This document shows positions 16,860 through 39,253 of a DNA stretch of 39,253 nt, piece by piece. The stretch lies in the UHGV virus genome UHGV-1369056. One strand, 5' to 3'. The DNA comes from a virus. Positions within the stretch are counted from its first letter, which is position 1, and every line of letters begins with the position of its first letter. The position numbers and the translations under genes were made by a program. Under the pieces are notes generated by a model. It made no database searches and was not told the origin of the DNA. It worked only from the letters and a program-made list of their open reading frames with translations.

Positions 16860-16933
16860 TTTACTGGGTCGGACTTCTGGCCCTTTACTGCATGTACAAG
16901 TGGTTCGGGTCGAACAACCGTCCTAAACACTGA
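16841..16933 (+). CDS. Small hydrophobic protein (30 aa, MDTIHVIYWVGLLALYCMYKWFGSNNRPKH)
   Basis: Hand-read ORF with strong SD aaggagg 8 nt upstream; overlaps the end of gene 6; position of T7 gene 6.3. Confidence 0.35.
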   Translation: MDTIHVIYWVGLLALYCMYKWFGSNNRPKH

Positions 16934-16985
16934 GTCTAGCCGATAGTCATATCCTATCAATCCAACAGTCATCCATAGGTGAAAC

Positions 16986-17008
16986 ACTAAACTATCACTA
17001 TAGGGACT
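16986..17008 (+). promoter_or_regulatory. Phage RNAP promoter, ACTAAACTATCACTATAGGGACT
   Basis: Consensus match; upstream of gene 6.5 (as T7 phi6.5). Confidence 0.8.
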
Positions 17009-17069
17009 TTAGGACCTAAGATATGACTATAAGATAGACTTTAGTCTTAACTTAAAGAGGAGATTCAAG

Positions 17070-25768: not shown

Positions 25769-25818
25769 AAGGGCCTATAGATTTACCTTAACTATCACTA
25801 TAGGGACTATAGGCCCTT
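25769..25818 (+). promoter_or_regulatory. 12-bp perfect inverted repeat (aagggcctatag / ctataggccctt) bracketing a phage promoter
   Basis: Arms at 25769-25780 and 25807-25818; the promoter core lies in the ~26-nt loop; only read-through transcripts from upstream would contain both arms. Confidence 0.5.
25786..25808 (+). promoter_or_regulatory. Phage RNAP promoter, CCTTAACTATCACTATAGGGACT
   Basis: Consensus match; upstream of gene 13 (as T7 phi13). Confidence 0.8.
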
Positions 25819-36168: not shown

Positions 36169-36595
36169 TTACTACAAAGTGGACCAGGCGAGTCCATCCG
36201 GTCTGGTCTCCGTTAGGACTGGAAAGCCTGTGGGGACATTAAGTCGGATGGGATATTGGATAGTACAGACACGAAGTCTAGGCAGTAAGCGGGCACATCG
36301 CGTGATATGGGAACTAACCAATGGTCCTATACCACATGGTATGCAAATAGATCACATCGACAGGAACCCCAGCAATAATACCTTAAGTAACTTACGGCTC
36401 GTTACTGCCGCTGAGAACACTTGGAATACGGGTAGCCATTATGACTCTAAGACGGGAGTGAAGTGCGTTACCCGTCACCAGAATGGTTATAGGATTCAGG
36501 TTAAACGCGGGAATGTCTATATGCGAACAACACGTCCTACTTTAGAGGAGGCTATCTCTGTCCGGGACCTAATGCTGGAGGGACTCTATGTCTAA
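36158..36595 (+). CDS. HNH homing endonuclease
   Basis: HNH motif [26 protein letters not shown]; GTG start at 36158 with strong SD aaggagg 7 nt upstream, overlapping the 18.5 stop; codon usage atypical (ata, agg, aga); inserted between 18.5 and 19. Confidence 0.8.
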
Positions 36596-38354
36596 GAAAA
36601 CACCTGTTGAAAGACAGGCAGAAATGACCCGAAGGATGAGGGACGACTTCGTATTCTTCATCTTCGTTCTCTGGAAAGCTCTTAGCCTTCCGGTTCCAAC
36701 ACGCTGCCAGATAGATATGTGTAAGAAGCTGGCTGCTGGGGATAATCGCCGCTTCATCCTTCAGGCTTTCCGTGGTATCGGCAAGTCGTTTCTGACCTGT
36801 GGTTTCGTGGTCTGGAAGTTATGGAACAACCCAGACTTGAAGTTCATGATTGTGTCGGCCTCAAAGGAACGAGCCGATGCGAACTCCATCTTCATCAAGC
36901 GAATCATCGACCTCATGCCTCAGCTTCAGGAACTCAAACCTAAGCAGGGACAGCGAGATGCGGTTATTAGCTTCGACGTTGGGCCAGCCAAGCCAGACCA
37001 CTCACCTTCGGTTAAGTCTGTTGGTATCACTGGTCAGTTGACTGGTAGTCGTGCTGACATCCTGATTGCCGATGACGTGGAGGTTCCGAACAACTCAGCG
37101 ACTCAGGCTGCCAGAGACCGTCTGTCAGAGCTTGTGAAAGAGTTCGACGCTATCCTGAAGCCGGGAGGTACAATCATCTATCTGGGTACTCCTCAGAACG
37201 AGATGACCTTGTATCGTGAGCTGGAAGGCCGTGGATACACCACTACTATCTGGCCTGCTCGTTATCCACGTGATAAGAAGGACTGGCAGTCTTACGGCGA
37301 CCGTCTGGCACCGATGCTTCAGGCAGAGCTGGAAGAGGACCCTGAGTCCTTCTACTGGCGTCCTACCGATGAAGTACGATTCGATGATACGGACCTGAAG
37401 GAACGTGAGCTGTCTTATGGTAAAGCTGGCTTCGCTCTACAGTTCATGCTTAACCCTAACCTGAGTGATGCCGAGAAGTACCCTCTGAAGCTCCGTGACC
37501 TTATCGTAGCAGACTTGGACCCAGCGTCTAGCCCAATGGTCTACCAATGGCTTCCTAACCCTCAGAACAAGCGTGAGGACGTTCCTAACGTTGGACTCAT
37601 GGGTGACTCATACCACACGTATCAGACTGTAGGTTCTGCCTTCAGCTCGTACACCCAGAAGATTCTGGTCATTGACCCTAGTGGTCGTGGTAAGGATGAA
37701 ACTGGATATGCGGTACTATACCAGCTCAACGGCTACATCTTCGCTATGGAAGTTGGTGGTATGCGTGGAGGTTATGAAGACTCTACTCTGGAAGCTCTGG
37801 CTAAGATTGGTCGTAAGTGGAAGGTCAACGAATACGTCATTGAGGGTAACTTCGGTGATGGTATGTACCTTGAGTTATTCAAGCCTGTAGCGGCCCGTAT
37901 CCATCCTGCGGCTGTAACTGAAGTGAAGAGTAAGGGTCAGAAGGAACTCCGCATCTGTGACGTTCTGGAGCCTATCATGGGGTCTCACAGACTTATCGTT
38001 AACGCTGCTGCTATCGTCCAAGACTACCAGTCAGCCTCTGATAAGGATGGTGTTCGTAACCCTATCTACTCTCTCTTCTACCAGATGACCCGTATCTCTC
38101 GTGAACGTGGAGCCTTGGCACACGATGACCGACTTGATGCGCTGGCTATCGGTGTACAGTTCTTCGTTGAGTCTATGGCTAAGGATGCCAACAAAGGCGA
38201 ACGTGAAGTCACTGAGGAGTGGCTGGAGGAACAGATGGAGAACCCACGGAAAGGCTTCGAGTCCATCCACACTGAGTTCTGGGACAATGGGGTCCGAGTA
38301 ACTCACGATACGGACGACGAGCTGGGACTAGGGGCCTACGTTACGTTTCACTAG
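36588..38354 (+). CDS. 19: Terminase large subunit (gp19 homologue)
   Basis: 588-aa ORF in the gene 19 position (T7 gp19 is 586 aa); Walker A-like QAFRGIGKS and Walker B-like ILIADDVE. Confidence 0.97.
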
Positions 38355-38363
38355 CTGAATGAA

Positions 38364-38412
38364 TAACTATAGGTGAAAGCTGCATGAATAAGCAGTTAGT
38401 AACCTATAGTTA
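38364..38412 (+). promoter_or_regulatory. 11-bp perfect inverted repeat (taactataggt / acctatagtta) with nested inner stem, directly after the terminase gene
   Basis: Arms at 38364-38374 and 38402-38412; the loop contains the inner stem ctgc/gcag; no T-run follows, so not a canonical intrinsic terminator. Confidence 0.45.
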
Positions 38413-38448
38413 CTACCAGTCTAACCTACTGTTTTACAAGGAGTTTAG

Positions 38449-38471
38449 ACTTAACTATCACTATAGGGAAG
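38449..38471 (+). promoter_or_regulatory. Phage RNAP promoter near the right end, ACTTAACTATCACTATAGGGAAG
   Basis: Consensus match; located after gene 19, where T7 phiOR lies. Confidence 0.8.
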
Positions 38472-38650
38472 ACCCCCGGTTACTTATAGTATTACTGTAG
38501 TGAATATACATATGCAGACTTTATGCAAGACCTTAGGAGGCAGACTCCGAGTTCTTACCTAAGGCTTGCACCGATGGAAGGAGGTGATATTAATCATAAT
38601 ACCTCCAATACAGATAGTCACCGACCATAGATACAGGAGGTATGTAGCAT

Positions 38651-38809
38651 ATGGCAAAGACCAAAGCTGTACTTAAAGCTCTGGCGACCAATCGAGCTAC
38701 ATACAGGTTTCTTGCTGCTGTTCTACTTGCTGCTGGCGTTACTGATGGAAGTCAGTGGGTCGGGTGGGTCGAGACTCTCGTATGTTCTCTGGTCTCTCAG
38801 TGTAATTAA
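38651..38809 (+). CDS. 19.5: gp19.5-like small protein
   Basis: 52 aa; RATYRFLAAVLLAAG...LVCSLVSQCN resembles T7 gp19.5 (RVTYRFLVVLCAALG...VVCSILTCSD) as recalled; SD aggagg upstream. Confidence 0.65.
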   Translation: MAKTKAVLKALATNRATYRFLAAVLLAAGVTDGSQWVGWVETLVCSLVSQCN

Positions 38810-38841
38810 CGCAATCATGGTAACGATTCATGAGCGGAAGA

Positions 38842-39005
38842 CCTAAGGTCAGTAAGTGGATAAAGACTCACTCTACTGACCTTAGCTACTGTAGTCAAGG
38901 ACTTTAGGTAACACCATTCAGGCTCTCACCTCTGGTCTACCTACTGATTGGTTCACTGGTCGTCATCCGATGGTCTTAGACCTACGGTCCTTGACCTACA
39001 GTAGC
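38842..39005. repeat. Cluster of inverted repeats in the non-coding right end
   Basis: 12-bp perfect inverted repeat ctaaggtcagta (38843-38854) / tactgaccttag (38874-38885), and a 17/18 inverted repeat ctactgtagtcaaggac (38886-38902) / gtccttgacctacagtag (38987-39004). Confidence 0.7.
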
Positions 39006-39253
39006 TGGCTCCTTAAGAGGGACGATGAGTTTTGGACCAAAAGTTTGAGACCACATCTCACAGTTCAAGAACCTCAAGTCTCCCCATAGGCCCTCTTTAA
39101 GTCCAGACCAAGGCCCTACCCCAGTCTATCATAAGGTTGGACCGGCTGTAAATACCTCAAGTCAACGATAGGTCATGACTATCGGTGGTGGTGGAGACGA
39201 TAGGTAGGGACTATTGGTCTGCCTCTGAGTCTCTATCTGTATAACCATAAGTC

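Follow-up and report, generated by a model that had tools for sequence, protein, structure and literature searches.

Nested inverted repeats between gene 19.5 and the terminal repeat of a K1F-like phage genome include a candidate counterpart of the T7 M-hairpin

Background

Transcripts of phage T7 carry a series of RNase III processing hairpins, R0.3 to R18.5, and the T7 terminal repeat (TR) is flanked by arrays of CCTAAAG-type short repeats called SRL and SRR (Dunn & Studier 1983). For duplication of the TR during concatemer cutting in T7-like phages, the only structural clue is the M-hairpin of T7. One report (PMC2680503) places this M-hairpin adjacent to gene 19.5 and states that phages from which both have been deleted lyse late and form small plaques, which may be due largely to loss of the hairpin. 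For the M-hairpin region (element m) the same text cites Chung, Nardone & Hinkle 1990, Kim & Chung 1996 and Kim, Kim & Chung 1997, and it relays that deletion of the M-hairpin impairs concatemer processing and that the element was reported to be non-essential (Kim & Chung 1996). The T7 Pac signal is made up of PacB, which is recognised by gp18, and PacC, which is cut by gp19 (PMC9860248). Packaging specificity depends on sequences located no further than 5% from the termini, and the polymerase pauses at a signal in the concatemer junction to start maturation (PMC3276506); most insertion loci at the T7 genome ends are tolerated (PMC11482910).

The stretch of DNA analysed here, which we call the window, is the whole of UHGV-1369056 (39,253 bp), a complete T7-like genome that belongs to the genus Kayfunavirus (K1F-like). 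A preliminary description of the window, made from its letters, drew attention to dense inverted repeats in the right-end non-coding region and read them as part of a T7-like region for concatemer processing and packaging. T7 has been known to carry such an element since the 1990s, and the repeat region is a fairly ordinary part of the DNA-maturation region. All T7-like (Studiervirinae) phages have a maturation region between gene 19.5 and the right TR, and on balance we take the repeats to be its Kayfunavirus form.

Results and Discussion

Organisation of the right end

The right-end 900 bp have 222 matching phage records, the top identity being 96%. The assembly is permuted, holds one TR copy and has its breakpoint within the array just beyond the TR. 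The terminase large subunit gene (36588-38354) lies upstream of gene 19.5, and a phage RNA polymerase promoter equivalent to phiOR is found at 38445-38472 on the + strand; it fits the genome's own promoter consensus, CTAAACTATCACTATAGG, which has ten further sites in the genome, and it is 98.5% conserved in an alignment of relatives. A phiOR is annotated at the equivalent relative place in the T3, BA14 and K11 records. Transcription from this promoter crosses gene 19.5 and continues over the repeats. Just past the gene 19 stop there is also a perfect 11-bp inverted repeat (TAACTATAGGT / ACCTATAGTTA, 38364-38374 / 38402-38412) that includes a promoter-core-like AACTATAGG, and two other strong inverted repeats, at 16933-17040 and 25769-25818, flank phage promoters.

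Gene 19.5 (38651-38809, + strand), the last gene before the right end, encodes a small membrane-type protein of 52 amino acids; 139 of its 159 alignment columns are invariant, and the homologous CDS in PE3-1 bears the note gp19.5. We note that the ECG4 record names this ORF "terminase large subunit". The repeats occupy the 247 bp of non-coding DNA between the end of gene 19.5 at 38809 and the start of the TR at 39057, which is the location originally given for them. In the K1F-like records examined the right-end repeat element is unannotated, the region being marked with "none" or with spurious hypothetical proteins; short "hypothetical protein" CDSs have been auto-annotated on both strands of the non-coding region in CHRF_30116.2, CHRF_30001 and EPr2. 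A protein-coding reading of the repeats, as ORFs of 25 and 39 amino acids, was rejected because their start codons and reading frames are lost in relatives.

The TR starts at 39057 with TCTCACAG, the physical left end. The sequence TCTCACAGTTCAAGAACC at this position is homologous to the left ends of T7 and T3, the T3 end TCTCATAGTTCAAGAACCCA (PMC3896407) matches TCTCACAGTTCAAGAACCTCA there, and the annotated DTR of phage EPr2 begins at the same motif. The right ends of K1F, EPr2 and SH3 map onto UHGV-1369056 at 39233, 39234 and 39238, respectively, and the TR, a single copy here, therefore runs from 39057 to about 39233-39238. TR lengths of 183 bp (measured) and 179 bp are reported for SH3 and K1F, respectively (PMC4925675). 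A scan of viral contigs with a 15-nt junction pattern, ACCAAAAGTTYGAGA, gave mostly chance matches and was not used. The sequence ATCTGTA is present at 39236-39242, exactly at the TR end, and resembles ATCTGTT, which we take to be the T7 class II pause/termination signal at the concatemer junction.

Directly left of the TR lies a conserved block, CGATGAGTTTTGGACCAAAAGTTTGAGACCACA (39027-39056), in which the majority frequency is 0.98 and 24 of 30 columns are invariant, and which can be aligned to T7 TATACCATAAAAATCTGAGTGACTA. This block is the likeliest candidate for the seat of sequence-specific recognition or cleavage. Like the pac signals of T3 and T7, the region as a whole is at the right end, no more than a few hundred bp from the concatemer junction; the pacB site, however, is recognised as duplex DNA and is not a hairpin, and the most conserved block here is 39027-39056 and not the repeats.

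Two adjoining inverted repeats

A 12-bp perfect inverted repeat had been claimed, and it is exact: CTAAGGTCAGTA at 38843-38854 is complementary at 12/12 positions to TACTGACCTTAG at 38874-38885, with 19 nt between the arms. These arms make up the lower stem of what we call hairpin 1 (38843-38885), which consists of the 12-bp lower stem, a one-base bulge, an upper stem of 4-5 bp and a loop of 8-10 nt; in the window the upper part (38855-38873) reads AGTG, loop GATAAAGACT and CACT, plus a bulged C. Hairpin 1 starts 33 nt after the gene 19.5 stop. The long-range repeat with 17/18-nt arms that had been placed at 38886-38902 / 38987-39004 is also correct, but understated. The true arms of this second repeat, IR2, are 26 and 27 nt long and 70 nt apart: arm A is AGCTACTGTAGTCAAGGACTTTAGGT (38884-38909) and arm B is ACCTACGGTCCTTGACCTACAGTAGCT (38980-39006), with one bulged C, one T.G and one T.C mismatch as their imperfections. 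IR2 joins two repeat pairs, 38884-38894 / 38996-39006 (11/11) and 38894-38909 / 38980-38995 (14/16). Within arm A, just 3' of hairpin 1, is a conserved box GTAGTCAAGG with the core AGTCAA (38892-38901, + strand), and arm B holds two CCTACrGT motif units. Two near-palindromes had been reported between the repeats, and both GACCTAAGGTC (38840-38850) and GGTCTTAGACC (38972-38982) are present; the former, however, is the foot of hairpin 1 and does not lie between repeats.

The IR2 spacer (38910-38979) is variable and holds, besides GGTCTTAGACC, three TGGTC words within 43 nt (38933, 38957 and 38971), an enrichment that ties the genome maximum and is not significant genome-wide. Clusters of GGGTC, TGGTC and GTGTC, which we take to be T7 primase recognition sequences, occur at the equivalent place in relatives and in T7, L025, AP10 and CR8.

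Structure prediction, proposed as a check in the preliminary description, shows that the 186-nt stretch 38830-39015 folds far better than its shuffles. Folded as RNA it has an energy of -78.3 kcal/mol against -51.7 +/- 4.2 for the shuffles (z -6.3, 0/200), and folded as DNA the z values are -5.6 for the + strand and -6.4 for the - strand, with none of 200 shuffles reaching the observed energies. A sliding scan of the genome in frames of 180 nt, not registered on the region, puts the repeats among the 3 best of 1309 positions. Only 8 inverted repeats in the genome have an exact seed of 10 nt or more within 150 nt, and 2 of these are in the repeat region.

Conservation among close relatives

An alignment of 51 distinct copies, gathered from IMG/VR, metagenomes and GenBank phages, retains hairpin 1 in 51/51, and its lower-stem arms are invariant in the 50 Kayfunavirus copies. 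In the remaining one, CR8 (Caroctavirus), the lower stem carries two compensatory changes. Across the 51 copies 90.2% of structure cells pair, compared with 21-43% when the partners are slid, and three pairs have changes on both sides. Lack of conservation among relatives had been named at the outset as the result that would speak against a function; the majority frequency is 0.98-1.00 in the arms of hairpin 1 (12/12 columns of the 3' arm are invariant in a 17-sequence long alignment) and 0.95 in IR2 arm A, against 0.73 in the IR2 spacer. This last value was measured on 38916-38976, where 8 of 61 columns are invariant, and relatives have length variants of the spacer.

These data bear on the simplest alternative, that the repeats are functionless products of local composition or of mis-assembly at a genome end. 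An artefact is worth considering in a permuted, single-TR assembly that was opened beside a tandem array, but the same sequence is present in 50 other independent genomes and metagenome contigs, the shuffles never reach the observed folding energy, and conservation is stronger in the arms than in the spacer beside them. We regard this reading as extremely improbable and, in view of the conservation, as refuted.

Three unrelated sequences, AAGTGGATAAAGACTCACT, TCATAGCTGACGCTAC and ACGTGGGATAAACCCTCCAC, are found as the inner part of hairpin 1, and each of them retains a 4-5 bp upper stem. Among the upper-stem pairs, 26-39 is AU in 33 copies and GC in 18, and 27-38 is GC in 38 and GU in 13. The three upper-stem/loop versions are spread mosaically among otherwise close relatives, and the loop GATAAAGACT is identical in the distant genus Apdecimavirus (AP10 and Ayanbimpe). 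The mosaic versions and the loop held in common with Apdecimavirus suggest that the inner part may be exchanged as a module, or that the loop may make a conserved contact.

The hairpin lies 160-165 nt from the TR in 37 of 47 relatives. Its distance from gene 19.5 ranges from 33 to 153 nt because small ORFs have been inserted upstream of the hairpin. These tiny ORFs, each with a ribosome-binding site of its own, differ among the several relatives that have them between 19.5 and the hairpin (L018 4041-4154 and L005 4051-4131; also L003, L006, L008, L019, L021, L211 and L289). Their products include a membrane-type peptide of 37 aa and an acidic one of 26 aa, and in every case the insertion lies immediately before the foot of the hairpin.

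The history of IR2 is different. Arm A is near-invariant in sequence in 46 of 51 relatives, and when covariation was sought in the 51-copy alignment almost none was found in IR2, since its arms are invariant; most single variants disrupt pairing. The base at 39001 is A or G, so that its pair with arm A is T-A or T.G (pair 57-182, UA:18/UG:30), and in PE3-1 one insertion fills the IR2 bulge. In L206 and L282, the latter being the isolated phage CHRF_30116.2, only the outer 8-10 bp of IR2 are left; a short local hairpin takes its place in L020 and L212, and another long-range pairing in CR8. IR2 is thus truncated in one isolated phage and replaced in L020, which appears to be another isolate, and it is therefore not indispensable. 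Judged by these genomes, hairpin 1 is universal and IR2 is apparently a genus-level addition that is dispensable in some natural isolates.

Equivalent hairpins in other Studiervirinae

Two-tier hairpins in an equivalent position, with compensatory changes, are present in eight Studiervirinae lineages. In CR8, AP10/Ayanbimpe, L025, T7, T3, K11 and BA14 the equivalent hairpin follows the 19.5 stop by 27-57 nt and precedes the TR by about 120-190 nt, and each of these hairpins folds better than its shuffles (z -2.8 to -5.6 as RNA, -2.5 to -5.9 as DNA). The stem sequences differ: AGGGAT/ATCCCT in T7, CTTTAAGTG/CACTTAAAG in AP10 and CCTTAAGGTC/GACCTTAAGG in L025. Double compensatory changes are found at 4 of 14 predicted pairs among T7, T3, K11 and L048, and at 3 of 14 pairs in the set of Kayfunavirus, CR8 and AP10. 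In most lineages an AGTCAA box follows the hairpin, as TAGAGTCAAG in T7, TAGAGTCAAC in T3, TACAGTCAAT in K11, AAGTCAAC in BA14 and Ayanbimpe, and TAAGTCAAG in CR8. A BLAST comparison of the repeat region with T7 gave no alignment; the likeness is one of position and architecture plus a short box, linked through intermediates (CR8, AP10, L025, T3, K11 and BA14), and a cross-genus MAFFT alignment was structurally inconsistent. In the literature searched, no earlier account appears to bring together the fixed position, two-tier shape, AGTCAA box and compensatory stems across genera.

The T7 candidate is at 39568-39608, 29 nt past the gene 19.5 stop. It is centred on 39588, 190 bp away from the first base of the TR (39778); hairpin 1, centred on 38864, is 193 bp from 39057. 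The published M-hairpin presumably lies ~190 bp left of the junction, which fits the hairpin at 39568-39608; from this distance and from its being "adjacent to gene 19.5", we infer that the two are the same. The repeat region resembles the T7 M-hairpin region in several ways: an inverted repeat comes straight after gene 19.5 and before the right TR, its stem has two tiers interrupted by a bulge or internal loop, an AGTCAA box follows it, and it lies within the transcribed stretch from phiOR to the concatemer junction. It differs in that the stem sequences are unrelated, the lower stem is a perfect 12 bp here and 6 bp plus short interrupted segments in T7, and the second repeat has 26-nt arms here as compared with a reduced form in T7 (12-nt arms, 83%).

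We lean to the view that hairpin 1 is the Kayfunavirus counterpart of the T7 M-hairpin and would aid concatemer processing and TR duplication at the level of DNA; its function in Kayfunavirus is suggested by homology of position and architecture. The original reading of the repeats as a T7-like concatemer-processing and packaging region thus gains support from the conservation, the cross-genus hairpin and the T7 M-hairpin. The treatment of all the repeats as one structure does not hold, as only hairpin 1 is universal.

Short repeat units and a possible protein-binding array

IR2 is built of inverted copies of short units, CCTAmrGT and AGTCAAG, that flank the TR. The word ACCTAmrGT occurs 11 times in the genome where 1.2 are expected, and 4 of the 11 are in 38841-39002. 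Immediately right of the TR is a perfect 13-bp tandem array of ACAACCATAAGTC (6.2 copies, 1-80, continuing from 39241), and there follow two copies of CCTACAGT at 90-118 and three (A/G)GTCAAAG units at 100-160; together, the array and the units after it seem to correspond to the short-repeat array on the left side in T7. The short units are concentrated on both sides of the TR, as in the T7-group arrays. The likeness to SRL/SRR comprises a 7-9 bp unit (here CCTAmrGT) clustered on both sides of the TR and a tandem array to its right, but unlike in SRL/SRR several units here are mutually inverted, giving long inverted repeats, and the unit sequence and spacing differ.

It is thus conceivable that the region is a K1F-like equivalent of the CCTAAAG-type arrays that flank the T7 TR, whose units would bind a phage protein, most plausibly gp18 in the manner of pacB; the inverted repeats, IR2 especially, would then be a by-product, and no hairpin would form. 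The excess of units in the repeat region and to the right of the TR would be expected of such an array, as would arms whose sequence is conserved with no covariation and a spacer between them that drifts. CR8 and L020 keep direct unit arrays and have no IR2, and gp18 is described as recognising PacB (PMC9860248). Hairpin 1 is left unexplained, since its stems change entirely across genera (T7, AP10 and L025) and the pairing and two-tier shape are kept, and three different upper stems within Kayfunavirus stay complementary. Co-evolving palindromic sites could mimic the covariation of the lower stem, but not the unrelated upper stems. A pure protein-binding array fits IR2 and does not fit hairpin 1, and as an account of the whole region we consider it improbable.

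RNA or DNA

A second alternative places the action of the repeats in the + strand RNA, both that started at the phiOR-like promoter and that of late read-through transcripts, in which they would form a structured 3' untranslated region after the last gene. Such a structure might shield late mRNAs against 3' exonucleases, be an RNase III-type processing site, or shape the nascent RNA behind a polymerase paused at the concatemer junction. A role in RNA is possible because the repeat region is transcribed: a scan of 38300-39253 for intrinsic terminators found no terminator-like site between the promoter and the repeats or beyond, and no T run follows either stem. The hairpin is always close behind the last ORF, even where extra small ORFs have been inserted, and its bulged two-tier stem, with covariation in segments of 2-4 bp (T7, T3 and K11), suits RNA better than duplex DNA. 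The RNA energies are about twice the DNA energies, the small bulged stems of T7, T3 and K11 being weak as DNA (-7 kcal/mol), and states compatible with G.U are frequent on the + strand (pairs 27-38, 57-182 and 74-165). Against this, a count of variants as events shows no bias towards either strand (8 G.T and 11 A.C types), which makes the strand-specific wobble test uninformative, and the - strand folds as well as the + strand.

The T7 RNase III hairpins are also two-tier, with an internal loop or bulge, and are found in phage transcripts immediately after a gene; unlike them, the elements described here have no sequence or Rfam match, a scan of both strands of 38300-39253 with Rfam 15 having returned no family even at E = 10. 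We know of no RNase III site mapped after gene 19.5 in T7, and in the T7 literature the element by 19.5 is presented as a hairpin of DNA with a part in concatemer processing. Action as RNA is in our judgement unlikely, if a serious contender, and a DNA-level aid to concatemer processing is the reading followed below.

A possible role in duplication of the terminal repeat

Both the action at the level of DNA and the link to TR duplication are drawn from the T7 comparison, and the following steps are proposed. Replication would produce head-to-tail concatemers with a single TR between genomes. The phage RNA polymerase would start at the phiOR-like promoter (38445-38472), transcribe rightwards through the region and open the duplex, whereupon the inverted repeat could fold back on a single strand or be extruded as a cruciform. 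The fold would provide a structure-specific landmark, or a point of fold-back priming, ~190 bp left of the TR, and the terminase (gp18/gp19) and replication enzymes might use this point to cut the TR borders and duplicate the TR. IR2, which stacks directly on hairpin 1, would probably reinforce or extend the same fold-back or recognition function.

A broader version of this scheme can be imagined, in which the two-tier hairpin after gene 19.5 and the AGTCAA box would be a pan-Studiervirinae signal, read in the nascent RNA or in the strand opened by transcription, that recruits or positions a complex of terminase and RNA polymerase at a fixed distance from the TR and so couples transcription to TR duplication and cutting; the Kayfunavirus IR2 would be a clamp that joins the AGTCAAG box to its inverted copy. 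We offer this as a speculation with little probability of being correct as it stands.

The counterpart hairpin is a handle on the TR-duplication step, and as such will be unsurprising to a T7 specialist. It keeps its position, two-tier shape and AGTCAA box over at least eight lineages while its stems change, which makes it a concrete and mutable target, and the natural compensatory variants and the isolates without IR2 allow tests of structure against sequence. The element, unannotated as it is, should be kept intact when K1F-like phages that are candidates for therapy are engineered or rebooted from fragments.

T7-like phages also have a second, TR-proximal hairpin, GGCCTATGGAGTTCCTATAGGGTCC (39721-39746 in T7, which is our locus L044; loci L030-L056). 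At the equivalent place in Kayfunavirus, 39002-39027, it is not conserved as a hairpin. In L056 the TR-proximal hairpin appears to show compensatory variation.
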